DNA of 64,000 bases from Thermoanaerobaculia bacterium (lineage in GTDB: Bacteria; Acidobacteriota; Thermoanaerobaculia; Multivoradales; DATKCC01), in assembly GCA_033762835.1 (NCBI GenBank), contig JANRLG010000160.1, forward strand, positions 224 to 64,223, written 5' to 3'. This document shows, piece by piece, positions 3,513 through 19,140 of this stretch; within the stretch, counting starts at the first letter, position 1, and every line of letters begins with the position of its first letter. The notes beneath the pieces are model-generated. The model saw only the letters and a program-made list of their open reading frames with translations, had not been told where the DNA came from and searched no databases. The position numbers were made by a program, and so were the translations under genes.

Positions 3513-4214
3513 TCACACCTCCCGCCCCACCCATCCCGCCTTCGCCATCCGGCCCACGAGCATCCGCACTCGCCGCTGATAACCCTTGCGCGTCGAGCCG
3601 GGGTGCCAGTCGTCGGGGTTGGGGAGGCTGGCGGCGAGTTGGGCGGCTTCGAGCTCGGTCAGGTTGGCGGCGGGTTTGCCGAAGTACTTGCGGCTGGCGG
3701 CCTCGGCGCCGTAGAGGCCGGTGCCGAACTCGGCGACGTTCAGGTAGATCTCGAGGATGCGGCGCTTTTCGAGGTGTTTTTCGAGTTGGCGGGTCAGCAT
3801 CGCCTCCTTGACCTTGCGCCACGGGTTGCGCGAGGGCGACAACCACAGGTTCTTGGCGAGCTGCTGGGTGATCGTCGAGGCACCGCGCGGCGCGCGGCCT
3901 TCTTCCTTGGCCTCGGCCCAGGCCTTTTTCATCTCCGCGACGTCGAAACCCTGGTGGGAGAAGAAGTTGATGTCTTCCCCCACGACCACCGCCCGTTTCA
4001 AGTTCGACGAGATGCGCGCGTAGGGCACCCACGTCCTCACCGCCTTCTTGCCCGACTGCCGCTCGAACCGCGCGATGAACGCCGAGGACTTTGGGTTTTC
4101 CGTCGCGAGCGCCGCGACGTCCGGCCAAGTGAGCCATTGATACAGGGCGACGAGCGCGAGCAGGGCGAGGCCGCCGAGGGCGAGGCGCAGGGACCAGCGG
4201 AGGAAGGAGCGCAC
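3513..4214 (-). CDS. mtgA: monofunctional biosynthetic peptidoglycan transglycosylase
   Basis: A 233-aa protein with an N-terminal membrane anchor. It carries the GT51 motifs EDINFFSHQGFD, RGASTITQQLAKNL and RRILEIYLNVAEFG. Confidence 0.9.
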   Translation of the reverse strand: MRSFLRWSLRLALGGLALLALVALYQWLTWPDVAALATENPKSSAFIARFERQSGKKAVRTWVPYARISSNLKRAVVVGEDINFFSHQGFDVAEMKKAWAEAKEEGRAPRGASTITQQLAKNLWLSPSRNPWRKVKEAMLTRQLEKHLEKRRILEIYLNVAEFGTGLYGAEAASRKYFGKPAANLTELEAAQLAASLPNPDDWHPGSTRKGYQRRVRMLVGRMAKAGWVGREV

Positions 4215-4287
4215 GGGAGAACTTTACTCGGGGCCCGGCCGTCTCGGGTGGGTGGTGTCTACCACGCGCTGCTAGACTGCCCTCGCC

Positions 4288-5565
4288 ATGGCCACCCCAC
4301 CCCGCGCCCGCATCCTCGTTCTGGGCGGCGGTTTCGGGGGGTTGTTCTTCGTCAAGGCGCTCCGGGCGAAACACAACGACATCGTGCTGGTCGACCGCCA
4401 GAACCACCACCTGTTCCAGCCACTTCTTTACCAAGTCGCCACCGCCGGCCTCGCGGCGCCGCAGATCGCCCAGCCGATCCGCCAGATCCTCTCCGGTCGC
4501 AAGAACCTCCGCGTGCTGCTCGGGGAGGTCGAAGCGGTCGACTTGAAATCGCGGACGGTCCGGCTCGCCGGGCGGTCCGAGCCACTGACCTACGACTACC
4601 TGGTCTACGGTCTCGGGGTCGTCAACGACTACTTTGGGCACTCGGAATGGGCGCGCCACGCTCGGGGCATGAAGTCCCTCGAGGACGCCGCGGTGATTCG
4701 ACGGGACCTGCTGCTGGCGCTCGAAGCCGCGGAATCGAGTGAAGACCCGGACCAGGTCCGGCGCCTGCTGACCGTGGTGGTGATCGGCGGCGGCCCCACG
4801 GGCGTCGAGCTCGCCGGGGCCATCGCGGACCTCGTTCGCCACGCCCGGCGGGACTTCACGCGCGTCGAGCTCGGGGTGACTCGGGTCGTGCTGGTGGAGA
4901 AGGGGCCGCGGCTGCTCGCTCACCTTCCGGAAGACTTGTCGGCCTCCGCGGAGCGCCAGCTCGCGAGCCTGGGCGTCGAGGTACGCACGAACGTCGGCGT
5001 TGCCGACATCACGGCCGGGCGCGTCCAGCTCGATGACGGCACCGAGCTGCTCGCTGAAACCATCCTGTGGGCCGCGGGGGTGCGTGCGGCGCCGTCCACG
5101 GTGGGGCTCGGCGTGCCGCTGGACCGCGCGGGGCGGCTCGAAGTCCTGCCGGACCTGAGCTTGCCCGGCCATCCCGAGGCCTTCGCCGTTGGCGACGCGG
5201 TGAGCCTGGTGGACCCGCGGGGCGTGCGCGTGCCGGGCGTGTCCCCGGCCGCCATGCAGATGGGCGCCTTCGTGGCGCGGGAGATCAGCGCCCGGGTGGC
5301 CGGCGCGGCGCCGTCGGGCCGGGCCTTCGTCTATCGCGACAAAGGCTCCATGGCGACCATCGGCAGGAAGTCCGCCGTGGCCCACCTGGCAGGAATGAAG
5401 CTCTCCGGCTTCCCGGCGTGGATCACCTGGCTGGTCGTCCACCTGCTCTTCCTCATCGGCTTCCGCAACAAGCTGCAAGTGGTGGTCAACTGGATCTCCT
5501 CCTACCTGTTCTACCGCCCCGGGGCGCGCGTGGTCAGCACGCCCGAGCCGCCCCCGCTTTCCTGA
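4288..5565 (+). CDS. ndh: type II NADH:quinone oxidoreductase (NDH-2), FAD-dependent
   Basis: It has an N-terminal GGGFGG dinucleotide-binding motif and a second VVIGGGPTGVELAG Rossmann motif. Its length of 425 aa and the C-terminal membrane-associated helix are typical of NDH-2. Confidence 0.85.
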   Translation: MATPPRARILVLGGGFGGLFFVKALRAKHNDIVLVDRQNHHLFQPLLYQVATAGLAAPQIAQPIRQILSGRKNLRVLLGEVEAVDLKSRTVRLAGRSEPLTYDYLVYGLGVVNDYFGHSEWARHARGMKSLEDAAVIRRDLLLALEAAESSEDPDQVRRLLTVVVIGGGPTGVELAGAIADLVRHARRDFTRVELGVTRVVLVEKGPRLLAHLPEDLSASAERQLASLGVEVRTNVGVADITAGRVQLDDGTELLAETILWAAGVRAAPSTVGLGVPLDRAGRLEVLPDLSLPGHPEAFAVGDAVSLVDPRGVRVPGVSPAAMQMGAFVAREISARVAGAAPSGRAFVYRDKGSMATIGRKSAVAHLAGMKLSGFPAWITWLVVHLLFLIGFRNKLQVVVNWISSYLFYRPGARVVSTPEPPPLS

Positions 5566-5646
5566 TCCCTCCTGATCCCATCTGGGCCGACTTTCCGCGT
5601 TGTGGCCGGGCATCACACGGATGCCCGACGATAGGAGGAAGTCGAC

Positions 5647-7641
5647 ATGCGAACTCGCGGATTCTTGGGACTTTGGGCCGTCGGCCTATTGCTTGGCGGC
5701 GCGCCCGCGTGGGCCGGCTCGTCGGTGGACGAGGGCACGGTGGTGCTCGAACAAGGGGAAGGCTGGAGCCTGGTCCAGACCAGCGGCTACGCCGAGGACG
5801 ACGGCGGCCAGTACTTCAACCAGAGGCTCTACCTGGCCCAGGGCCAAGCCGGAGCCAGCGGCCTGCCGCTCACGGGCGGGCTCTACGAGAACGTCATCGG
5901 GGACGCCAAGGGCGAAGCCACCACCTTCATTCTCGACCAGACGATCGTCCAGGAGTTGGCCCAGGCCGAGAGCCAGGGTTACTTGACGCCGTATCTGTTG
6001 TCGATCGCCGAACCCGAGGACCCGGAGGAAGGCGGCTGGGAGCCGTCTCTCGAGGCCGCCGACCCCCAGGGTCGCCTGTTCGGGCGCTGCAAGAACAAAG
6101 AGGTCCGCAAGAGCAAGACGATCAATCTCGCTCAGCCGCTCAACCTGTGGAGTCAGGACTTCGGCGGCGGCTTTTCGGGCAGTCTCGACTTGACCGGCAA
6201 CGCCACCGGTTCGGCTACCGGCGAGATCGTGGTGGAGTTGAAGCGCTACGCCGTCTTCGGCGTGTGCATTCCCTACGGCGTCAAGTTCAATCACGTGCGC
6301 GCCTACGGCCAGCTTTCGGCCTTGGCGGGCGCGACGTTGACCGGCACCGTGGCCTACTCCAAGAGCTGGGAGTGGCCGATCGCCAAGCCGCACCTGTTCT
6401 CGTTCACCTTTTTGATCGGCCCCGTGCCGGTGCACATCGGCGTCAACCTGCCGATCACCGCCGGGCTCGATCTCAACGCCAGCATCAGCGGCCAAATCGG
6501 TTACGGCAGCAACTACTCGGCGCAAGGCAGCTTCGACTACACCTGTACGTTCGACGGCTGCTCGGGCGGCAACACGTTCATTCAGAACGGCGGCAACGGC
6601 TCGCCGCAGTGGACCGCCGCGATCACCGGGCGCATTCAGCCCACGGTCTGGGCGCAGGTCGCGTTGCGCGCTTATCTCTACGGTGAGTGGCTGGCCTACG
6701 CCCAGGTCGGCGTCCGCCCGCGGCTCCACGGCGACCTGTGGGGCTACTACGGCAACAACTGCGGCGACGCCGACGGCGACGGCCGTTTCGAAACGGTCGA
6801 CGCGCTGACCTTCGATCTCGATTGGGACTTGCGGATCACCGCCCAGGCCAAGGCGTTGTGGTGGGACCCGCGCAACTGGGATCTCGGCGGCATCGAACGC
6901 CGTCACATCGGCTTCTGGGATCTGCTCGAGCATTCGACCGCCCTCGATCCGATGCTCGCCGGCAACACCCCGGTCCCGGCCGGCACGTCCCAGCGCTACG
7001 ACGCCCGGATGCGGCCCTGCTGGCCCTACGGCGAGGACGTTACCTACGACCTCAACTACGGCGACGGCTCGAACGTCGGCCTCGCCGGCAACCCCCGGTT
7101 CTGGGTCTCCGCCAACAAGACTTGGCCGGCCCCGGGCTCGCAGAATCTCGTCCTGACGGCCCTACGCGACGCCCACGGCCGCATCCTGAACTCGCAGACC
7201 GGCCGCACGATCGAGGTCACCTCGGCGTCCCGCCGGGGAATGACCTGGGCGAAGGTCGGGCACGACTTCGCGACCGGCACGGACAAGTTCAATTGCGCCA
7301 ACTGCAACCCCTACACGGGCGACGCCCTGTGCACCGAAATTCGGCCGATCCTCTGCCTGCGCCCCGACGGCTCCCCCAATCCGGGCCTGCCGGTGAACTT
7401 CTATGACGGCTGGATCGGCGGCAACGTCGGCCTGTCGACCCCGGTGCGCGGCAACCAACTGCTCTCCGCCGCCAACGCCGACGCCCTGTGCGCCGCGGAC
7501 TTCGGTCCGGGTTGGGTGATGGCGCCGTTCCACCATGCGACCGGCGGCTGGGGCTGGTCGTCCCGCGGCAACGTCACCGCCCTGCAAAGCGACCGCTTCT
7601 GGGTGCGCATCGACAACCAACCGGCCAACTGCTGGAACTGA
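5647..7641 (+). CDS. secreted hypothetical protein with a C-terminal Cys-rich ~150-aa domain
   Basis: A signal peptide, MRTRGFLGLWAVGLLLGGAPAWA, and an AGGAGG RBS. The C-terminal ~150 aa (WAKVGHD...CANCNPYTGDALC...ANCWN) are paralogous to the whole of the next gene. Confidence 0.7.
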   Translation: MRTRGFLGLWAVGLLLGGAPAWAGSSVDEGTVVLEQGEGWSLVQTSGYAEDDGGQYFNQRLYLAQGQAGASGLPLTGGLYENVIGDAKGEATTFILDQTIVQELAQAESQGYLTPYLLSIAEPEDPEEGGWEPSLEAADPQGRLFGRCKNKEVRKSKTINLAQPLNLWSQDFGGGFSGSLDLTGNATGSATGEIVVELKRYAVFGVCIPYGVKFNHVRAYGQLSALAGATLTGTVAYSKSWEWPIAKPHLFSFTFLIGPVPVHIGVNLPITAGLDLNASISGQIGYGSNYSAQGSFDYTCTFDGCSGGNTFIQNGGNGSPQWTAAITGRIQPTVWAQVALRAYLYGEWLAYAQVGVRPRLHGDLWGYYGNNCGDADGDGRFETVDALTFDLDWDLRITAQAKALWWDPRNWDLGGIERRHIGFWDLLEHSTALDPMLAGNTPVPAGTSQRYDARMRPCWPYGEDVTYDLNYGDGSNVGLAGNPRFWVSANKTWPAPGSQNLVLTALRDAHGRILNSQTGRTIEVTSASRRGMTWAKVGHDFATGTDKFNCANCNPYTGDALCTEIRPILCLRPDGSPNPGLPVNFYDGWIGGNVGLSTPVRGNQLLSAANADALCAADFGPGWVMAPFHHATGGWGWSSRGNVTALQSDRFWVRIDNQPANCWN

Positions 7642-7656
7642 CGAGGAAAGATCACC

Positions 7657-8133
7657 ATGAACATCAAGAGTCTCAGTCTTCTGCTCGTCACCCTCGGCCT
7701 CGTGGCCGGCGCCGCCGAGGCGCAGGTCCGTAGTGGCCTCACTTGGGGCAAGGTCGGGCACGACGCGACGTTTTCGACCGACACGGTGGCGTGCAACGGC
7801 TGCAACGCCTACCAAGGGGACACGAGCTGCGCCGTGGCCCTGCCCATCCTCTGCCTCTACGCCGACGGCGCCCCCAACCCGGGCGTCACCACCAACTTCT
7901 CGAACGGCTGGGCCCGCGGCTTCGTCCACCTGACCGCCCCAATCCCCGGCGTCGCCCTCGGCAGCCTCGCCAACGCCAACGCGATCTGCGCCGCCCGCTT
8001 CGGCCCCAACTACCGCATGGCCGAATTCCACGACGGCGCCGGCGGCTGGGGCTGGCAGGCCTACGGCAACATCGACCCCGCGACGCGCTTCTGGGTCCAC
8101 ATCAACGACCAGAGCGCGAACTGCTGGAACTAA
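7657..8133 (+). CDS. small secreted Cys-rich protein, a stand-alone copy of the upstream C-terminal domain
   Basis: A signal peptide, MNIKSLSLLLVTLGLVAGAAEA. The sequence WGKVGHD..CNGCNAYQGDTSC..LPILCL..NPG..GGWGW..FWV.IN.Q.ANCWN aligns position by position with residues ~520-664 of the 5647..7641 protein. Confidence 0.7.
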   Translation: MNIKSLSLLLVTLGLVAGAAEAQVRSGLTWGKVGHDATFSTDTVACNGCNAYQGDTSCAVALPILCLYADGAPNPGVTTNFSNGWARGFVHLTAPIPGVALGSLANANAICAARFGPNYRMAEFHDGAGGWGWQAYGNIDPATRFWVHINDQSANCWN

Positions 8134-8139
8134 GGGGAA

Positions 8140-8560
8140 GGGGACAACGAATACCCGCAAGGGATTGGGCCGCGAGGGATTCAACCGCGAGCGAATGAAT
8201 TCGCTCGCTACATTCAAACGTCCCTGACGGGACGAAAAAACGCCGATTTATCGGCGGTTAACGTCAACGATCCGTAGGGGCGGCCCCCCGTGGCCGCCCT
8301 CCCGGGTTCGATCGCAACGCCCCAGCGCGTGCCCCGCGCGCCCCGCGAGGGATTCCCCGCCCGTGCGCACGACGGTCCCCGCCGAGGGATTCCGCTGCGA
8401 GGGATCGCCCGTGCGCCCACCCCTCCGCGAGGGATTAAAATCCCTCGCTACGTCAAAACGTCCCTGACGGGACGAAAGAAACATCAATTTCTCGGCGATG
8501 ATCACCAACATTCCGTAGGGGCGCTGCTTGCTGCGCCCCTCCTCCCGTCCCGGCCTCCCT
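8140..8560. repeat. hairpin-rich intergenic element with two ~80-bp direct repeat units and repeated GAGGGATT motifs
   Basis: The unit at ~8210-8290, tcgctacattcaaacgtccctgacgggacgaaaaaacgccgatttatcggcg...ccgtaggggcggcc, recurs at ~8440-8520 as tcgctacgtcaaaacgtccctgacgggacgaaagaaacatcaatttctcggcg...ccgtaggggcgctgc. Each unit carries the hairpins CGTCCC-tgac-GGGACG and a GGGGCG...CGCCCC stem. The palindromes GCGAGCGAATgaATTCGCTCGC and GCGAGGGATTaaAATCCCTCGC are present. GC content is locally low. Confidence 0.5.
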
Positions 8561-8566
8561 CCCGAC

Positions 8567-11155
8567 CTACGCCCCCGTCCCCAACACCCCCGCCAACCAA
8601 ACCACCTCCCGCTCCCGCCGCCGGTACCCCGTCTCGTCCACCAACTCCCGCGCCCGCGTCAGGTGCCGCCGCGCGGCAGCGAGATCCCCCTGGTCCCGCC
8701 GCAACCGCGCCCACTCGAGGTGCGCGTCGCACTCGTGCAACCGCATCCCGCCCCGCTCCGCGATCTCCAAAGCCTCCGCCAAGTCCGCCTCGGCACCGGG
8801 GTGGTCCGGCAAGAAGCGCCGCAGGGCGGAGCGGGCCAGGAGGCCGCGGGGAAGGTGGTGCTCGGTGGCGGCCCGCCGCAGGCCGTCCACGGCTTGGTTC
8901 AGGTGAGTGGCGGCCTGGGCGAGGTCGGCGGCGCGGTCGTTGGGAAAGGCAAGAAGAGCTGGGTAGAGAGAAGAACGGCCGAGGGTGAGGTGGTCGAGGG
9001 CTCCGGAGAGAAGGTCTTGGTTCCAGTCTTCGACCCACTTCAGCGTTTGGCTCGCCCTCTCCAGCACCTCGCCGCAAGCCTGCCGAACCTTCTCCGCCTC
9101 CTCTGTCCGGGAGCCCAACTCGGCGAGGCCATCCAGCCCGGCCCCGGTCCCCGGCTCCGCCTGGCTCAGCAGCAGGTCGCAGTACCGAAAGCCCTGGAGC
9201 GAGTAGAGCCGGGGGTACTCCGGCTGATCCTCCGCCTGCAGAGCCTCGGCCTCGCGGAAGGCCGCCGCGCTTTCCTTCCAGCGGCCCGCCTGGTGTTGGG
9301 CGTCGGCCCAGGTCGTTCGGAATGCCATTTGAAAAAAGTCCTCGCCGCTGCGGTCGGCTAGCTCGACGCTCTGCTCGCCGAAGGCCACGGCACGCGGCAC
9401 GTGCCCCAGGGTCAGGGTCAGCCCGTTGAGGTTGCTGGCGACTGCCGCGGCAAAGCCCCAAGACTCCTGAACGATGTAGGCCTCCAGCCCCGCCTGCATC
9501 GGCTCGACCGCCTCCGCCAGGCGGCCGAGAGCGCGCAGGACGAAGGCGGCTTCGTTCAGCACGAACGCCTGCGCCGCCGCGGTGAGCTGAACGGAGGGCT
9601 GGGACCAGGAGCGCTCGAAGAAGCCCGCGAGCGCCGTCAGCTCCGAGCCGAAGGCCCCGAGCTTCCTCCAGCTGAAAGCCTCCTCCCCACGCCGAATCCG
9701 CCGCCAAAAGACCTCGTCCATCACCTCCTGCTGCCGCCCCGCCCTGCAGCCGTGGAGCATGGCGGAGTAGAGGGGCTGCAGCTCCTCCAGCGTCTCCGGC
9801 AAGTCCGGTGCCGCTTGGCACAGGTGCTGATACAGCCGCAGATTCCCTTCTACCCAGCTCTTTTTCTTTCTCTTCTCCAGCTCCGCGGCAAAAAACACCC
9901 GGACCAGAGGATGCGCGTCCAACGTCTCCGGCTCCCTTGGATCGGCTTCTGCCAGCAGGCCGTGCTCGCGTAACGTCGCGACGGCGCTCCGCCAGTCGTC
10001 TTCCGCCAGGCCCACCAGCTTCCCGGTCAAGCCCGGAATCACCGGCTTCGCCCGCAACACCTTCAGCGAGGCCGCACTGGCCGGGCGGTCGAAGAAGCCC
10101 AGCAGCCGGAGAATCGCCACTTCCGGGCCATCGCCCAGCCAACGGCAATAGGCCGCGATCACCCGGCCCGCATGGCCGCCGGCCTTTTCGTCGACCTCCG
10201 CCAGGTCGATCTCTTTCCGCTTCCGCACGTTCCCGCCATGCGCCCGCCGCAGGAAGTTCCCGAGCAGCGTCAGCGTGAGGGCATGGCGCTGGAACTCCTC
10301 GGCCGCCTTGCCCAGCTCATTCTTCGAGCCCTTCACCCCCAGCACCCCCAGCAGCTCCACCGCCGCTTCCAGCTCCAGCGTCTCCAGGTCCACCTGCGGC
10401 GCCGTCACCTTCCAATTCGCCAAGTCCGCCACGCGCTCCCGCGTCGTCACCACACACAATCCCGGATTTCCCGCCGCCAGGCCCTTCAGCAACGCGGCCA
10501 CGCCCGGATCCTTCAGCCGCCCCGCCACTTCCGGCCGGCCCGGGCCGTGCTGGAGCGGCTCGAGGCCGTCGAGAATCAACAACGTCCGTTCCTGCCGGAC
10601 GAGCCCCGCCAGCCTCGCCCCGCGGTCGTGCGGCGAGCCGGCGGTCGGGTCCGGGTCGCCGAAAAACCGCAGACCGTGGGCGATGAACGTATCCGCCGAG
10701 CCGTTCCGGCTCTCCGTCCCCTGGCTGTAGAACGACCAATCCAGCACCCGCCGCGCCCCCCGCCAGCCGTCCGCCGCCATCCCATCCAACCACCGCGCCA
10801 CCAGCGCGCTCTTGCCCACGCCGCCGAACGCCACCAGCGTGAAGACATGCTCCGCCGGGTCCGCCCACGCGGCATCCAGCTGGGCCAGCTCCGCCTGCCG
10901 GCCCACGAAATGAGGGCCGGGGATGGGCAGGCGGCCGAGGTCGATGCGTGGCTCCGATCCGTTCTGCGCCGGCTTGGCCCCCGAGAGCGCAGCGATCTTG
11001 CGCTCCGCTTCTGCGATCTGCACGCGCAGGCTGAAGAGCTGGCCAGAGTCGGAAACGACCGCCTCCTGCTCCTGCAAGAACGCCAAGCGCTGTTGCCAAA
11101 CGGCCAGCGGATTCGGATCCGGTTCGGTGCTCACCGTCTCATCCTCCGTACTCAC
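8567..11155 (-). CDS. STAND NTPase (NACHT/NB-ARC-like P-loop) with C-terminal TPR-like repeats and an N-terminal ~45-aa helical EAD-like motif
   Basis: An 862-aa protein. It has a Walker A motif, LVAFGGVGKSALVARWL; a Walker-B-like LLILDG; CVVTTRE; and a long helical-repeat C-terminus. The N-terminal PNPLAVWQQRLAFLQEQEA...IAEAERKIAALSG motif matches the C-terminal tail of the upstream gene. About 60-70% amino-acid identity to the 11139..14189 gene, estimated by eye. Confidence 0.85.
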   Translation of the reverse strand: MSTEDETVSTEPDPNPLAVWQQRLAFLQEQEAVVSDSGQLFSLRVQIAEAERKIAALSGAKPAQNGSEPRIDLGRLPIPGPHFVGRQAELAQLDAAWADPAEHVFTLVAFGGVGKSALVARWLDGMAADGWRGARRVLDWSFYSQGTESRNGSADTFIAHGLRFFGDPDPTAGSPHDRGARLAGLVRQERTLLILDGLEPLQHGPGRPEVAGRLKDPGVAALLKGLAAGNPGLCVVTTRERVADLANWKVTAPQVDLETLELEAAVELLGVLGVKGSKNELGKAAEEFQRHALTLTLLGNFLRRAHGGNVRKRKEIDLAEVDEKAGGHAGRVIAAYCRWLGDGPEVAILRLLGFFDRPASAASLKVLRAKPVIPGLTGKLVGLAEDDWRSAVATLREHGLLAEADPREPETLDAHPLVRVFFAAELEKRKKKSWVEGNLRLYQHLCQAAPDLPETLEELQPLYSAMLHGCRAGRQQEVMDEVFWRRIRRGEEAFSWRKLGAFGSELTALAGFFERSWSQPSVQLTAAAQAFVLNEAAFVLRALGRLAEAVEPMQAGLEAYIVQESWGFAAAVASNLNGLTLTLGHVPRAVAFGEQSVELADRSGEDFFQMAFRTTWADAQHQAGRWKESAAAFREAEALQAEDQPEYPRLYSLQGFRYCDLLLSQAEPGTGAGLDGLAELGSRTEEAEKVRQACGEVLERASQTLKWVEDWNQDLLSGALDHLTLGRSSLYPALLAFPNDRAADLAQAATHLNQAVDGLRRAATEHHLPRGLLARSALRRFLPDHPGAEADLAEALEIAERGGMRLHECDAHLEWARLRRDQGDLAAARRHLTRARELVDETGYRRREREVVWLAGVLGTGA

Positions 11156-14100
11156 GGACCTTCCGCCGGGCTTCCTCGATTTGTTTCAGCAGGGCGAATT
11201 TCTGGTTGGCTTCGACCGCGAGGGCTTCCTGCTGTTCGAGGAAGGCTAGCTTTTCACTCCAGAGGGCGAGGGCTTTCGGGTTGCCGACCGGCAACGGAGC
11301 CACCGGATAGGGCGGCCCCGGCCTCGACCTGCGCCCTGCGATTCCTGCGACTCCGGGAAACATCGGCGGCCCGGGAGGCTTTGCCCGCCCGGCGCGTACC
11401 GCTGCCAACACCGCCTCCTTGGCCGCGTCCGGCGTCAAACCCACCAAATCCTCCCAAATCAACGTCTTCAGCATCCCCGTCGGCGAGCACGGCGCCACTC
11501 GCAGGGGGATCAGCTTGCGCTTCTCGCCCCGCGGGTCGTCCACGAACGCGGCGGCCCACTCGGGCTGCGTGTAGTCCGCGCGCAGGTAGTTGTCACTTAG
11601 CACCATCACCGTCTTCCGCGCCTCGCTCGCCGCCTTCTGCATCTCGAGCACGAAGTTCGCCCCGGGCCGGAAGTCCCAGGGCTGATAGACCACCGAAAAC
11701 CCCGCCTCCTCGAGCGTCCACGCGATCCAGTCCGCCCAAGCCCGATCCTTGCTGTTGAAACTGACGAAAAAGTCCTTCACGCGAGCCTCCTTCTGCAATT
11801 CCTTCTCGAGCCAAACCACCTCCCGCTCCCGCCGCCCATAACCCGTCGCCGTCACCAACTCCCGAGCCCGAGCCCAATGCCGCCGCGCCTCCCCGATCAA
11901 CCCCTGGTCCCGCCGCAACCGCGCCAGCTCCAAATGGGCGTCGCATTCAAAAAGCCGCATCCCGCCCCGTTCGGCGATCTCCAAAGCTTCCGCCAAGTCC
12001 GCCTCGGCGCCGGGGTGGTCGGGCAGGAAGCGCCGCAGGGCGGCGCGGGCCAGGAGGCCGCGGGGGAGGTGGTCCTCCTGGGCGGCCCGCCGCAAGCCTT
12101 CCACGGCCAGGCTCAGGTGATCAGCCGCTTGAGCCAGCCCGGCGGCGCGGTCGTTGTGACAGGCAAGAAGAGCTGGGTAGAGGGCAGAACGGCCCAGGGT
12201 GAGGTGGCTCAAAGCGATGTCGAGAAGTGGGTACTGGTCCTCGAACCAGTCCAGCGTTTGCCTCGCCCGCTCCAGCATCTCCCTGCACACCTGCCGGAGG
12301 CTCTCTGCCTGCTCCGGGCGGGAGCAAATCTCGGCGAGCCCATCCAGCCCGGCCCCGGTCTCCGGCTCCGAAAGGCCCAGCAGCAGGTCGCAATACCGAA
12401 AGCCCCGGACTGAGTAGAGCCGGGGGTACTCCGGTTGCCACTCCGCCTGTATCGCCTCGGCCCCGTGGAAAGCTGCCGCGCTTTCCTGCCACTGGCCCGC
12501 CTGGTGTCGGGCGTCAGCCCAGGTGGTCCAGGTGACTATTCGTCGAAAGGCATCGCCACTCCGATCGGCGAGCTCGACGCCCTTCTCGCCGAAGGCCACG
12601 GCGCGCGGCACGTCCCCCAGGGCCAGGGTTAGCTCGGTAAGGTTGTTGGCGACTGCCGCCCCTTCTTGCCAAATCTTCTGGCCGAGCCTTGCCTGCAAGC
12701 TCGCCTGCGTTGGCTCGATCGCCTCCGCCAGGCGGCCCAGAGCGCGGAGGTTGGCGGCGACTTGGTTCAGGACGAACGCCTGCCAGTTCGCGGTGAGCTG
12801 GGTGGAGGGCTGGGACCAGGGGTGATCGAAGAAGCCCGCGAGCGCCGTCAGATCCGAGCCGAAGGTCCCTAGGTTGCGCAAACTGAAGTGCTCACTCCCC
12901 CGCAGTATCCGCCGCCAGTACACGCCAATCATCAGCTCTTGCTGCCGCCCCGCCCGGCAGCCGTGGAGGATGGCAGCGTAGAGCGGCTGCATTTCTTCCA
13001 GCGTCTCGGGTAAGTCCGGTGCCGCTTGGCACAGGTGCTGGTAAAGCCGCAGGTTTCCTTCTACCCAGATCTGCTCCTTTCTCTCCAGCACCTCCGCGAA
13101 GTACGAGCGGACGAGCGGGTGGCAGTCCAGGGTGTCCGGCACACTCGGGTCCGCTTCCGCCACCAACCCGTGGTCTCGCAACGTGGTGACTGCGCTCCGC
13201 CAGTCTTCCTTCGACAAGCCGACCAGATCCTCGGTAAGGCCTTTGATCACCGGCGTCGCCCGCAGGGCCTGGATCGAGGCCGCATCCGCAGGTCGGTCGA
13301 AGAAACCCAGCAGCCGGAGAATCGCCACCTCCGGGCCATCGCCGAGCCATCGGCAGTAGGCTGCTACCACTCGGCCGGCATGGCCGCCGGCCTTGACGGC
13401 CACCTCTCTTAGACTGATCTCCTTCCGTTTTCGAACATCCCCGTTGTGCGCCCGCCGCAGGTAGCTTCCGAGAAGCGTCAGCGTAAGGGCATGTCGCTGG
13501 AACTCGTCAACCGCCTGCCCCAGCTCTTTTTCCGAACCGTCCACCCCCAAAGCCTTCAGCAGCTCCACCGCCGCTTCCGGCTCCAGCTTTTCCAGGTCAA
13601 CCTGCGGCGCCGTCTGCTCCCAGCCGGCCAAATCCGCCACCCGCTCCCGCGTTGTCACTACACACAACCCCGGATTCCCGGCCGCCAACCCCTTGAGCAA
13701 CGCCGCCAGCCCCGGGTCCTTCAACCGCCCCGCCACTTCCGGCCGGCCAGGTGGGTACTGCAGCGGCTCGACACCGTCCAACACCAACAGCGTCTTCTCT
13801 TTCCGCACCAGCTCGGCCAGCCGCCGGCCTCTGTCGTGGGGGGAACCCTTCGTCGGGTCTTCATCTCCGAAGAACCGCAGCGCGTAGTCGATGAACCCAT
13901 CCGCTGAGGCCACGCGCTCTTCCGAGCCCTGGCTGTAGAAACTCCAGTCCAGCACCCGCCTCGCCCCGCGCCAGCCGTCCGCGGCCATTTGCCCCAGCCA
14001 GCGGGCCACCAGCGCGCTTTTCCCCACGCCGCCGAAGGCGACCAGCGTCACCACGTGCGTGCTGGCGTCCGCCCAGGCGTCATCCAGCCGCTTCAGCTCC

Positions 14101-14189
14101 TTCTGCCGGCCCACGAACACCTTGCCGGGGATCGGCAGGCGGCCGATGTCGAGTCGTGGGCTGACTTTCTCCGTCATCACTTGCCTCAT
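11139..14189 (-). CDS. STAND NTPase-TPR protein with a C-terminal TIR domain and a terminal EAD-like helical motif
   Basis: This is the real part of the 1451-aa ORF. The ORF upstream of 14189 is antisense to lysA and gives junk residues. The start is at ATG 14189 (MRQVMTEK) or 14177, which has a GAGG Shine-Dalgarno motif. It has a P-loop, LVAFGGVGKSALVARWL. The C-terminal ~210 aa begin KDFFVSFNSKDRAWADWIAWTLEEAGFSVV...MVLSDNYLRADYTQPEW, which is TIR-like. The protein ends NPKALALWSEKLAFLEQQEALAVEANQKFALLKQIEEARRK. A perfect AAGGAGG followed by GTG at 11780 sits in frame just before the TIR. Confidence 0.8.
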   Translation of the reverse strand: MRQVMTEKVSPRLDIGRLPIPGKVFVGRQKELKRLDDAWADASTHVVTLVAFGGVGKSALVARWLGQMAADGWRGARRVLDWSFYSQGSEERVASADGFIDYALRFFGDEDPTKGSPHDRGRRLAELVRKEKTLLVLDGVEPLQYPPGRPEVAGRLKDPGLAALLKGLAAGNPGLCVVTTRERVADLAGWEQTAPQVDLEKLEPEAAVELLKALGVDGSEKELGQAVDEFQRHALTLTLLGSYLRRAHNGDVRKRKEISLREVAVKAGGHAGRVVAAYCRWLGDGPEVAILRLLGFFDRPADAASIQALRATPVIKGLTEDLVGLSKEDWRSAVTTLRDHGLVAEADPSVPDTLDCHPLVRSYFAEVLERKEQIWVEGNLRLYQHLCQAAPDLPETLEEMQPLYAAILHGCRAGRQQELMIGVYWRRILRGSEHFSLRNLGTFGSDLTALAGFFDHPWSQPSTQLTANWQAFVLNQVAANLRALGRLAEAIEPTQASLQARLGQKIWQEGAAVANNLTELTLALGDVPRAVAFGEKGVELADRSGDAFRRIVTWTTWADARHQAGQWQESAAAFHGAEAIQAEWQPEYPRLYSVRGFRYCDLLLGLSEPETGAGLDGLAEICSRPEQAESLRQVCREMLERARQTLDWFEDQYPLLDIALSHLTLGRSALYPALLACHNDRAAGLAQAADHLSLAVEGLRRAAQEDHLPRGLLARAALRRFLPDHPGAEADLAEALEIAERGGMRLFECDAHLELARLRRDQGLIGEARRHWARARELVTATGYGRREREVVWLEKELQKEARVKDFFVSFNSKDRAWADWIAWTLEEAGFSVVYQPWDFRPGANFVLEMQKAASEARKTVMVLSDNYLRADYTQPEWAAAFVDDPRGEKRKLIPLRVAPCSPTGMLKTLIWEDLVGLTPDAAKEAVLAAVRAGRAKPPGPPMFPGVAGIAGRRSRPGPPYPVAPLPVGNPKALALWSEKLAFLEQQEALAVEANQKFALLKQIEEARRKVREYGG

Positions 14190-14243
14190 GGGTTTCGAGA
14201 AACGCGCAGATCTTACGATTTCCCCCTCGTCTATACTCCCGCG

Positions 14244-15623
14244 ATGCACCCATTCGACTGGCGCGGCGGCGTTCTGCATGCCGACGAGGTTCCCGTTCCC
14301 GAGATCGCCGCGGCGGTCGGCACTCCTACCTACGTTTATTCGGCCACGGCCATTCGGGCGGCTTACCGGCGGCTCGAGGCGGCGTTTTCGCCGCTCCGGG
14401 CGCGGCTGCGCTACGCCGTCAAGGCGAGCCCCAATTTGCACCTTTGCCGCCTGCTGCGCTCCTTGGGCGCGGGCATGGACGTGGTTTCGGGCGGGGAGCT
14501 CGAACGCGCTTGGTTGGCCGGGGCGCCGATGGCGGACATGGTGTTCGCGGGGGTGGGGAAGAGCGACGCCGAAATCCGTGCGGCGCTCGATGGCCGATTC
14601 AGCCCGATGCGCGAGGCCGCCGAACGCTTCGGGATGGCGGACCCGGCCGGCCGCGGACCCGTGGGCCTTTTGAACGTGGAAAGTGAGAGCGAGCTGCGCT
14701 CGATCGCGCGGATTGGCGCCGAGCTCGGTGTGCGCGCGCGGGCGGCCGTGCGGGTCAACCCGAACGTCGACCCCCACACCCACGAGTACACCACCACCGG
14801 CAAGGAAGAAAACAAATTCGGCATCGACGCCGACCGCATCGTCGAGCTCTTCGAGCGTTACGCGGGCTCCCCGGGCGTCGAGCTCGTGGGCCTCCACGTG
14901 CACATCGGCTCCCCGGTCCCGCTCGTCGAGCCCTATGCCGAGGCCATCGCGGTCGTCTCGACCTTGATCGACGAGTTGGCCGCCCGTGGCCACCACGTCT
15001 CGGTGCTCGATCTCGGCGGTGGCTGGCCGGTCGATTACCGCGACGGCGAAGTACCGCCTCTCGAGGCCTATGCCGAGCGCATCGTGCCGCTTCTGGCCGC
15101 GCGCGTGGCCGCGGGCCTCGAGGTGTGCCTCGAGCCGGGCCGCTCCATCCTCGCCAACTCGGGGGTGTTGCTCTCGCGCGTCCAGCACGTCAAACACGGC
15201 CGCGCCAAGACCTTCGTCATCGGCGACGCGGGCATGCACACCCTGCTGCGCCCGGCGCTCTACCGGGCCTTCCACTTCGCCTGGCCGGTGGCCTGGGACG
15301 GCCCGCGGCCGACGTTTGCCGAGGACCCGGGGTTGCCGAACCTGACCCCCTGCGATCTCGTGGGGCCGATTTGTGAGACCGGGGACTTCCTGGCGCGCTC
15401 CCGGCCCCTGCCGCCCATCGAACAGGGCGAGCTCGTGGCGGTGTTCTCCGCCGGGGCTTACGGCATGTCCATGTGCTCGAACTACAACGACCACGGCCGG
15501 CCCGCCGAGGTGCTGGTGGACGGCGACACGGTGACCGTCATCAACGAACGCCAGTCGCTCGCGGCGCTCCTCGAAACCGAGCGCTTGCCGCGGACGCTGC
15601 CGCGGCTGGGAGTCACCGCGTGA
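14244..15623 (+). CDS. lysA: diaminopimelate decarboxylase
   Basis: The N-terminal region MHPFDW...AAVGTPTYVYSATAIRAAYRRLEAAF and YAVKASPN carry the PLP-binding Lys. Length and motifs are typical of LysA. It is divergent from the STAND gene across a ~55-bp intergenic region. Confidence 0.9.
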   Translation: MHPFDWRGGVLHADEVPVPEIAAAVGTPTYVYSATAIRAAYRRLEAAFSPLRARLRYAVKASPNLHLCRLLRSLGAGMDVVSGGELERAWLAGAPMADMVFAGVGKSDAEIRAALDGRFSPMREAAERFGMADPAGRGPVGLLNVESESELRSIARIGAELGVRARAAVRVNPNVDPHTHEYTTTGKEENKFGIDADRIVELFERYAGSPGVELVGLHVHIGSPVPLVEPYAEAIAVVSTLIDELAARGHHVSVLDLGGGWPVDYRDGEVPPLEAYAERIVPLLAARVAAGLEVCLEPGRSILANSGVLLSRVQHVKHGRAKTFVIGDAGMHTLLRPALYRAFHFAWPVAWDGPRPTFAEDPGLPNLTPCDLVGPICETGDFLARSRPLPPIEQGELVAVFSAGAYGMSMCSNYNDHGRPAEVLVDGDTVTVINERQSLAALLETERLPRTLPRLGVTA

Positions 15624-18717: not shown

Positions 18718-19140
18718 TCAGAGGCCGCGAAACGGGTTCTCGATCTCGAGGCTGCCGATCTTCTGGCCGTCTTGGAGATCCTCGGTGAGCAGCCGAGGGC
18801 AGCCCGCGGTAAGCGCGGCTTGGACGACGAGGGCGTCCCACAGCGAAAGCTGCGTCTTTTGGGCGAGTTGGATGCTCTCGAGAATGAAGGGGCCATCGAT
18901 CGGTACGATCTGCATCGCCATCAGGTCGCGAACGGTGTCGAACGCGACACTGGGCGCCAAGGGCTGCGCCAGTTTGCGGGTGACACTGACATAGAACTCC
19001 TGGAGCACCTGGGTGCTGAGGACGAAACGCGCGCGGGTCCGCGAGTCGAGCAGCGTCCGAGCGCGGGCCTGTTTGGCCGGCTCGTCGCTATCGAAGTAGT
19101 AGACCAGGACGTTGGTGTCGATGAAGAGCTTATCGTTCAT
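18718..19140 (-). CDS. vapC: type II toxin VapC (PIN domain)
   Basis: The N-terminus is MNDKLFIDTNVLVYY. There are PIN acidic residues and an 11-nt overlap with the upstream small antitoxin gene. Confidence 0.85.
   Translation of the reverse strand: MNDKLFIDTNVLVYYFDSDEPAKQARARTLLDSRTRARFVLSTQVLQEFYVSVTRKLAQPLAPSVAFDTVRDLMAMQIVPIDGPFILESIQLAQKTQLSLWDALVVQAALTAGCPRLLTEDLQDGQKIGSLEIENPFRGL

Follow-up and report, generated by a model that had tools for sequence, protein, structure and literature searches.

The 64-kb window analyzed here, a GC-rich (about 68%) contig from a metagenome-assembled genome (MAG) of a Thermoanaerobaculia bacterium, carries two neighboring minus-strand genes, A (11139..14189) and B (8567..11155), whose products share a 46-residue helical hairpin placed at the end of the first protein and at the start of the second. 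Gene A encodes an NTPase-TPR core followed by a C-terminal TIR domain, a Pro-rich linker and the hairpin, which makes a protein of 1016 aa when translation is taken from ATG 14189. Gene B encodes the hairpin and then an NTPase-TPR core, without effector domain, and its maximal open reading frame (ORF) gives 862 aa from GTG 11155. We consider it rather probable that A and B together constitute an NLR-like module with two sensors and one effector, in which B would borrow the TIR domain of A through binding of one hairpin to the other.

In the mechanism that we propose, both A and B would be sensors, each with a STAND-type P-loop NTPase and a TPR sensor region, and the only effector would be the TIR domain at the C-terminus of A, which is followed by a flexible Pro-rich linker and the helix-turn-helix adaptor. 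The hairpin of A would bind that of B, probably as a four-helix bundle, and this would put the TIR domain of A at the N-terminus of B, the very site at which the same TIR domain and linker are covalently attached in single-gene relatives. Ligand-triggered oligomerization of B, and probably of A as well, would then cluster the TIR domains, the clustering would turn on NAD+ cleavage or the synthesis of a signal, and the output would be growth arrest or death of the infected cell. We infer the hairpin-hairpin contact, the oligomerization, the NADase activity and the role in defense from sequence and from predicted structure.

The shared hairpin and its distribution

The hairpin of A (PKALALWSEKLAFLEQQEALAVEANQKFALLKQIEEARRKVREYGG; 11142..11279, minus strand) and that of B (PNPLAVWQQRLAFLQEQEAVVSDSGQLFSLRVQIAEAERKIAALSG; 10979..11116, minus strand) match one profile with E-values of about 1e-24 and about 1e-21, respectively. 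When aligned to each other, residues 970-1016 of A and 13-59 of B are about 45% identical over 47 aa (E=8e-9), which bears out the original prediction, made from the letters of the window, that the same helical motif ends A and starts B in different reading frames. The DNA of the two copies is 56% identical, as against 29 +/- 4% for codon shuffles; judged from these comparisons, the two hairpins are old homologous copies and not a recent duplication. The prediction had also named the possibility that the motif is a generic coiled coil found in unrelated neighbors as well. A six-frame profile scan of the window matched the A and B sites alone, with the next best match at E=2.6, and elsewhere the profile is position-specific. 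The generic coiled coil was rejected on this basis.

The hairpin profile (A2, 46 columns) was searched against 1.84 billion representative proteins and matched 791 clusters at E<=1e-3, and 339 at E<=1e-10. With C-terminal defined as <=12 residues from the C-terminus and N-terminal as <=30 residues from the N-terminus, the hairpin was C-terminal in 113 of the best 149 clusters, N-terminal in 22, internal in 8 and present in multiple copies in 6. The C-terminal copies lie after effector-type domains, namely TIR_2 (35/71), TIR, SEFIR, CHAT, PNP_UDP_1, Metallophos (a calcineurin-like phosphoesterase) and alpha/beta-hydrolase, and in a few of these proteins EAD1 or EAD7 is present as a separate domain. 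The N-terminal copies lie before NTPases of the AAA_16, NACHT, AAA_35 and NPHP3_N families and, at individual loci, before nSTAND1-WD40, iHD-CE/wHTH-Hsp90-associated and NB-ARC-like cores. Scanning isolated hairpins against Pfam-A with hmmscan at E<=10 returned no family, the EAD1 and EAD7 models and the catalytic families included.

AlphaFold2 (AF2) run with a multiple sequence alignment (MSA) of 17 sequences predicts two helices, 967-986 and 990-1009 in the numbering of the deposited protein P0001, with a per-residue confidence (pLDDT) of 82-90. The break between the helices falls at a conserved (S/A)-D-P-x-Q, and the alignment reads as a heptad-like a/d spacing with an S/D-P helix N-cap. 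Some proteins carry the hairpin more than once: P0121, a NACHT-LRR protein of 1205 aa, has three in tandem near its C-terminus (residues 955-1107), and P0122 has two in tandem upstream of TIR_2-AAA_35. Such tandem copies in one chain may pair intramolecularly or may allow multivalent docking.

The placement of the motif recalls amyloid signaling. In the BASS systems of bacteria, an effector ends in a short motif with which the NLR encoded next to it begins (Dyrka et al. 2020 preprint, doi 10.1101/2020.01.06.895854). The genomic syntax here is identical to that of BASS and HET-S/NWD2, both including "all-in-one" fused relatives, and TIR2, CHAT and alpha/beta-hydrolase are among the BASS effectors. 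One could therefore read the motif as a prion-like amyloid signaling motif (BASS or HET-s/NWD2) that passes a templated cross-beta fold from the NLR to the effector. However, Q, N, G, V and I are overrepresented in BASS motifs, and K, P and L underrepresented (doi 10.1101/2020.01.06.895854), whereas 68% of the hairpin residues are A, E, L, Q, K or R, with N at 0.7%, G at 4.2% and V at 3.5%. In addition, the AF2 model described above consists of two amphipathic helices. The hairpin is thus helical, charged and not amyloid-prone, and the partner that bears the effector is, unlike in BASS, itself NLR-like. BASS membership was rejected on composition and predicted structure, as the hairpin shares the syntax of these motifs but neither their composition nor their beta propensity, and we regard the amyloid reading as highly improbable.

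Hairpin pairs, fused counterparts and solitary genes

Among loci fetched from genomes and metagenomes, we found 18 unique ones in which a gene whose product ends in the hairpin precedes one whose product starts with it. At 16 of them the two hairpin-coding segments are separated by 15-39 nt, and in an unbiased metagenome sample roughly half of the C-terminal-hairpin genes are paired with an N-terminal-hairpin gene. The family is thus not one of single genes with one copy of the motif, an outcome that had been named as a refutation of the pairing idea. The configuration seen in the window, in which a complete STAND protein with effector and hairpin precedes a hairpin-STAND protein, recurs at L093 (A-type then B-type). 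At L083, a TIR2-core-SEFIR-hairpin protein, whose ORF is continuous in the six-frame analysis, precedes a hairpin-core protein, and at L100 a SEFIR-core-X-hairpin protein does so. L085 has the same chain built with a different adaptor, SEFIR-core-TIR-adaptor2 followed by adaptor2-core. In other pairs the effector partner is a stand-alone protein: a SEFIR- or TIR-hairpin protein lies before a hairpin-core protein at L084, L103 and L110, TIR-hairpin before hairpin-NB-ARC-like at L012, TIR/SEFIR-hairpin before hairpin-iHD-CE at L112, and TIR-hairpin before hairpin-nSTAND1-WD40 at L114. Hairpins of cognate pairs are 55% identical and those of non-cognate pairs 49%, and 0 of 10,000 permutations attained the observed value.

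A trivial explanation for such a gene pair would be an artifact or decay, that is, a giant gene broken by a frameshift, or a fission on the way to a pseudogene. In support of this, the two genes use different frames and meet or overlap where they join, and the contig is metagenome-assembled. However, the succession of stop, short spacer, start and second hairpin recurs in independent loci from other samples (L083, L084, L093, L094, L096, L099, L100, L103 and others), both ORFs run uninterrupted for 2.6 and 3.0 kb, the start of B has a strong Shine-Dalgarno sequence ahead of it, and the ratio of nonsynonymous to synonymous divergence (dN/dS) between A and B is 0.23 in the nucleotide-binding oligomerization (NOD) module, indicating purifying selection. 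We give this explanation practically no credence, and the frameshift or fusion artifact was rejected on the recurrence of the arrangement, in agreement with the earlier statement that the junction is not a frameshift.

The family to which the two cores belong contains a covalent version of the proposed complex. With A as the query, 2887 homologues were retrieved, almost all of them from Thermoanaerobaculia/Acidobacteriota metagenomes, and they were aligned on Walker A. The core, which runs from LDLGRLPIPG through the TPR region, stays constant among them, and the effector module varies. In the best 120 proteins, the N-terminal module is a TIR domain of a second subtype in 48 proteins, a restriction-endonuclease-like module in 15 and a TIR domain of the gene A subtype in 10, the last joined to the core by the same Pro-rich linker; helix-turn-helix, SEFIR, kinase and other modules occur in single cases. 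In the fused proteins P0012, P0013, P0015, P0019-22 and P0025, this TIR domain and linker run directly onto the LDIGRLPIPG boundary. Six of the 120 are B-type, and in all six the hairpin is the sole module upstream of the core. Because the fused "Rosetta stone" relatives unite the same TIR domain, linker and core that are otherwise split over two genes, TIR-hairpin and hairpin-core proteins would be expected to act together, and we regard this as the most forceful argument for it. The effector-adaptor pairing logic of the original prediction is upheld by the terminal bias of the hairpin, its effector and STAND partners, the recurrent adjacency and this fused counterpart, all of which agree.

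The remaining 28 A-type proteins have no N-terminal module, and 24 of them end in an effector plus the hairpin. More generally, cores without an N-terminal module have a C-terminal extension in 28/28 cases, with a recognizable effector in 25/28, and cores with an N-terminal module have one in 1/90. This complementarity suggests that the C-terminal TIR domain serves core A itself, whatever else it does. Full-length A-type homologues from other samples are 54-78% identical to A and have the same architecture, and many A-type proteins keep a Met at the TPR/TIR boundary (...ELAKEST-MKDFFVSF...); the A-type looks like the result of an old in-frame fusion of a downstream TIR gene. A few A-type relatives, such as P0058 and P0070, have a C-terminal effector without the adaptor. 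The C-terminal TIR domain had been called an unusual architecture, which is correct for NLRs in general, but in this family it is a common and conserved class (24/120 top homologues).

Several observations weigh against the module that we favor. About ten A-type genes, amid housekeeping genes, have no B-type gene within several kb (L002, L003, L006, L007/L105, L081/L092, L090/L122, L098, L106, L121 and L123), and such solitary A-types need a partner encoded elsewhere, or else the hairpin has another role. The similarity between cognate hairpins is a modest signal and is confounded by shared lineage. When the A-hairpin, the natural tails and the B-hairpin were modeled as a single chain by AF2 without MSA, the helices were confident but the predicted template modeling score (pTM) was 0.32, with no reliable packing. 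The C-terminal effector of A does not lie at the site where STAND oligomerization is known to cluster domains, so that activation of the TIR domain by assembly of A is uncertain. The STAND assignment itself is weak, as it rests on sub-threshold profile matches and motifs, and the AF2 model of the gene A NOD is poor (pLDDT <50). Lastly, PADLOC-DB 2.0 matches only the TIR domain of A (PDC-S66, Aga TIR, bSEFIR), with no match to B and none to either core, and a defense-island context was not seen in the window, the homologous loci likewise lying amid housekeeping genes.

The solitary genes also bear on an alternative in which the hairpin is a coiled-coil element for self-association, aiding oligomerization of the TIR domains in the case of A and of the protein itself in the case of B, and A and B act independently as tandem paralogues. 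This would fit with most A-type genes being solitary, with the C-terminal copies being 59% alike among themselves, more than they are to N-terminal copies, with the two or three tandem hairpins of P0122 and P0121, and with the adaptor-less effectors of P0058 and P0070. Nevertheless, it would make the B-type a sensor without an output, and it leaves unexplained why an N-terminal-copy gene lies within 15-39 nt at 16 paired loci. Furthermore, the fused TIR-linker-core relatives speak for TIR and core being parts of one unit, and the hairpin also joins TIR proteins to the unrelated nSTAND1-WD40, iHD-CE and NB-ARC-like cores. Independent action of A and B is therefore unlikely in our judgment.

A further alternative is that B is a regulator of the antitoxin-like or guard type, whose hairpin would sequester the TIR-hairpin part of A and hold it inactive as long as B is neither triggered nor degraded. 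B has no effector, the sensor regions of A and B have diverged, and the gene order with its embedded ribosome-binding site (see below) suggests stoichiometric co-expression. However, the common solitary A-types, if functional, would then be unregulated, and B, like bona fide sensors, has its Walker A and B motifs intact and its TPR sensor complete. In addition, the effector-hairpin and hairpin-STAND pairs at L012, L084, L103 and L110 fit recruitment more simply. We think sequestration by B quite unlikely.

For the two-sensor, one-effector module, the solitary genes mean that adjacency is optional and that the tandem pair is one configuration rather than an obligate operon; the rule that an A-type is always followed by a B-type was rejected, since most A-types are solitary. 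The A-type is probably an autonomous sensor-effector, to which the hairpin adds optional connectivity. In one MAG (GCA_036264355.1), an A-type gene (L002) and a solitary B-type gene (P0031, L082) lie on different contigs, which fits pairing in trans. It is a tentative extension of this, and one that we hold with clearly less confidence, that bacteria possess sensor/helper-type NLR networks, in which several effector-less B-type sensors of differing specificity, adjacent or scattered in the genome, would converge through the hairpin tag on the TIR domain of an A-type. Hetero-oligomeric, resistosome-like assemblies would then be possible, and the hairpin would be a new, portable and genetically encodable coupling tag across at least four unrelated families of core NTPases.

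A number of further adaptors and tails were noticed at these and related loci. Adaptor2, of ~70 aa, is found at L085 (5285-9004 and 9001-11643), at the C-terminus of P0017 and at the N-terminus of P0088; core-TIR proteins end in it, and the core that follows begins with it. Its consensus is roughly ...ML.RL..LPAA.FE..VF........PGK......RAIEL..., and its sole Pfam similarity is a weak one to CATRA-C (E=0.076). Cyanobacterial stand-alone proteins (L036 9995-10705, L044 2-712, L067 9953-10702) have a TIR domain of the gene A subtype, the Pro-rich linker and a helical tail of ~55 aa (...IK.RNLE......EEEYNA.FEQ.......R..LERQIQ.IE..L..IAEQLD.L), which may be another adaptor family. Another of these proteins, at L043, ends in a tail that is EAD-like by eye. 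At L122 (8130-9269, on the L090 contig), a TIR_2 protein of 379 aa lies 58 nt downstream of the A-type P0009, and the profile detects no hairpin in it. At L009 (6905-10862), binned as Candidatus Paceibacterota, a large STAND-like protein ends in TIR-hairpin and is followed by a 93-aa ORF that starts with the hairpin; the taxonomic bin looks doubtful for a locus of this kind, and the short ORF may be a truncated partner. At L083 the frame is open from 4205 (4205-7993), and the source annotation lists a 233-aa SEFIR protein alone (7295-7996). Annotation may often present the C-terminal effector-adaptor modules of such genes as small genes of their own, or make the opposite error.

Domain architecture and junction of genes A and B

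In the description of gene A, Pfam matches were judged against gathering scores, and all coordinates are on the minus strand. The best defined part is the TIR domain (11436..11771, residues 807-918), which matches PF13676 TIR_2 with E=6.8e-31 and 107.7 bits against a cut-off of 28; a lack of significant TIR or STAND matches, listed in the original prediction as a refutation, was thus not observed. In a search of PDB sequences with gene A, structures of TIR domains were matched and the TIR domain was the sole part recognized. Its candidate catalytic residue, Glu877 in YTQPEW (11559-11561), is invariant in 15/15 homologues, and in alignments it falls on the Glu of WPQKE in 3h16, a TIR structure from Paracoccus, and on that of the equivalent motif of TLR2, so that the residue singled out by the original prediction still stands as the candidate. 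The TIR domain of A would accordingly be an NADase or a signal-producing enzyme, as far as its sequence goes. It is followed by the Pro-rich linker (11283..11435; KPxxPxFPG...PxPxYPG). The pattern K-P-x3-P-x-F-P-G ... P-x-P-x-Y-P-G is kept in both the fused and the split arrangements and across phyla, including cyanobacterial TIR-NB-ARC proteins, a conservation that is unusually high for a mere spacer.

The NOD module of A (12870..14159, residues about 11-440) starts at the family-wide LDIGRLPIPG boundary. By eye we find Walker A GGVGKS (14016-14033) and Walker B LLVLDG, together with TTR, a GxP-like motif and an HPL that resembles MHD. The Pfam matches of this NTPase are sub-threshold (AAA_16 1.7e-4, NB-ARC 5.5e-3), and those of family members, all below gathering scores as well, are to AAA_16 in 10/10, NACHT in 9/10 and NB-ARC in 7/10. 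A profile of the NOD alone found no relative among PDB sequences at E<=10. In the AF2 model of full-length A (17 sequences), the nucleotide-binding part of the NOD has pLDDT <50, with residues 200-385 modeled as helices (pLDDT 64-87). The TPR-like helical repeat sensor region (11808..12869, residues about 441-794) has weak matches to TPR_12 and TPR_2 and is modeled as an all-helical repeat at pLDDT 80-94. The architecture that had been proposed for A is thus firm for the TIR domain and the terminal helix but weak in Pfam for the NTPase and TPR parts, and an assignment to NACHT in particular is not established.

Gene B has the architecture that had been described for it, the hairpin followed by a P-loop NTPase-TPR core. 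The core (8594..10951, minus strand) is 76% identical to the A core over 786 aa, its Pfam matches (AAA_16, NACHT, TPR_12) are all sub-threshold, and it keeps intact Walker A and B motifs plus the full TPR sensor. In a neighbor-joining tree the A and B cores are sister clades. The dN/dS between A and B, which comes from one pairwise comparison as does the synonymous divergence (dS), is 0.73 in sensor residues 441-680, against the 0.23 of the NOD, and dS is 0.69 in the NTPase half and 0.30-0.42 in the TPR half. This pattern is compatible with diversifying sensors of different specificities, perhaps with gene conversion.

At the junction, gene A ends with TGA 11141-11139 after an uninterrupted translation, and the frame of gene B, which differs from that of A, is closed by a stop upstream of 11185. 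A Shine-Dalgarno-like GGAGGA (11142..11147, minus strand) is located inside the last two Gly codons of gene A, 7 nt upstream of GTG 11134. Since a start at this GTG also gives the 855 aa of the deposited annotation P0024, it is more probably the start of gene B, and GTG 11155 is less likely. For gene A, an alternative start at ATG 14177 gives 1012 aa, as in the deposited P0001. P0001 and P0024 match the products of A and B at 100% identity and come from a deposited MAG contig to which the window is identical. The coordinates from which we set out therefore give both minus-strand ORFs correctly, and it is the starts that may shift, to GTG 11134 for B and possibly to ATG 14177 for A. Because the ribosome-binding site of B lies within the last codons of A, the two genes are probably translationally coupled.

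Relation to known systems and genomic setting

The closest framework for the hairpin is that of the effector-associated domains (EADs; EAD1-12 and bDLD) of NTP-dependent conflict systems (Kaur, Burroughs, Iyer, Aravind 2020, PMC7159879; Kaur et al. 2021, PMC8195603). By the EAD rule, one copy sits on the terminus of a core (STAND or similar) and further copies sit on the termini of effector or signaling domains (PMC7159879). EADs are small, non-enzymatic and mostly alpha-helical, with further copies elsewhere in the same genome, and in other members the effector is directly fused to the core (PMC7159879). The hairpin is alike in all these respects: it is found on a STAND terminus and on an effector, with the second copy in many cases encoded next door and in some at another site of the genome, it is small, non-enzymatic and all-alpha, adjacent copies are more alike, and relatives have the effector directly fused to the core. 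Homotypic binding between copies also belongs to the EAD concept and is what we propose for the hairpin. On the other hand, it matches no Pfam EAD model (E<=10) and looks like a separate sequence family, and its 46 aa and two helices put it well below the size of the Death-like EADs. Furthermore, the effector-adaptor is here on the C-terminus of a complete STAND-TPR sensor rather than on a stand-alone protein, which creates a STAND-to-STAND chain. Given that the hairpin has the architecture of an EAD but not membership in the Pfam EADs, we file it as working like an EAD; it is probably a new EAD-type family and not a member of a named one.

The single-chain TIR-STAND-TPR relatives (P0012, P0019, P0025) and the cyanobacterial TIR-NB-ARC proteins (L017, L023, L027) have the same TIR subtype, linker and NTPase-TPR core, and they are the covalent equivalent of the proposed complex between the TIR domain of A and B. 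They differ in having no hairpin, an N-terminal effector in cis and one sensor per effector.

The locus had also been proposed to be an anti-phage system of the Avs/bNACHT type. Avs proteins are antiviral STAND NTPases, reportedly described by Gao and colleagues in 2022 (for bNACHT and antiviral STAND proteins, see also the preprint of Kibby et al. 2022 and the 2026 Nature survey PMC13581612). The tripartite logic of effector, NTPase and repeat sensor is common to these systems and to ours, TIR is among their known effector types, and the expected mode would be oligomerization-driven activation of the effector with abortive infection. The locus differs from them in its C-terminal effector, in having two sensors per effector and in the lack of a defense-island context. 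As noted above, the PADLOC models match the TIR domain of A alone; an NCBIfam scan of A and B likewise gave TIR-level matches for A alone and none for either core. With matches limited to the TIR domain, no named defense system can be assigned, and the proposed Avs/bNACHT membership is not borne out.

Reliance of an NLR without executioner on a paralogue that carries one is familiar from eukaryotes, as in plant RRS1/RPS4 and NRC networks and in animal NAIP/NLRC4. The resemblance to these paired NLRs, with genetically linked paralogues and diverged sensor regions, is one of analogy only: the coupling element is not homologous, the genes here are head-to-tail and not head-to-head, and hetero-oligomerization of A and B is hypothetical. 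A literature search for this helical tag or for STAND-to-STAND chaining turned up, in the searchable literature, the general EAD and BASS principles alone, which is not proof of novelty. What appears to be new here is a previously unmodeled family of hairpin adaptors together with a recurrent STAND-to-STAND chaining that is also found with other effectors and with a second adaptor.

Should the hairpins pair, two NLR-like receptors would converge on one TIR domain through a 46-residue tag, a bacterial counterpart of the sensor/helper and paired-NLR logic. If they do not, the locus would be a pair of TIR-STAND paralogues and routine. It is worth noting that the locus brings its own control in the form of the relatives in which the same TIR domain and core are covalently fused. 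Including the hairpin in domain libraries would link many orphan TIR, SEFIR, CHAT and PNP proteins to their cognate sensors, and conflict systems in phyla such as Acidobacteriota and Cyanobacteria would be better annotated as a result. The hairpin may also serve as an engineering handle.

The genes around A and B in the window are housekeeping genes (lysA, NDH-2, and genes for a transglycosylase, a beta-lactamase-like protein and a hydrolase). A scan of 8100-14500 for sigma-70 promoters found no sites, an outcome that carries no information for this phylum. About 310 nt downstream of the gene B stop, a terminator-like hairpin (CGCCGATAAATCGGCG then TTTTTT; 8241..8256, minus strand), recognized by consensus match only, is a possible end of the A-B transcript. 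The sole other conflict-type gene noticed near the locus encodes a VapC-type PIN toxin (PF01850, E=1.8e-14) at 18718-19140 on the minus strand, 4.5 kb from gene A. Just downstream of gene B, two adjacent plus-strand ORFs (5647-7641, 664 aa, and 7657-8133, 158 aa) have signal-peptide-like N-termini and no Pfam match in either, and they share a Cys-rich C-terminal domain of ~130 aa with the pattern G.TW.KVGHD...C.NCN.Y.GD..C....PILCL...GGWGW...FWV.I.-Q.ANCWN.

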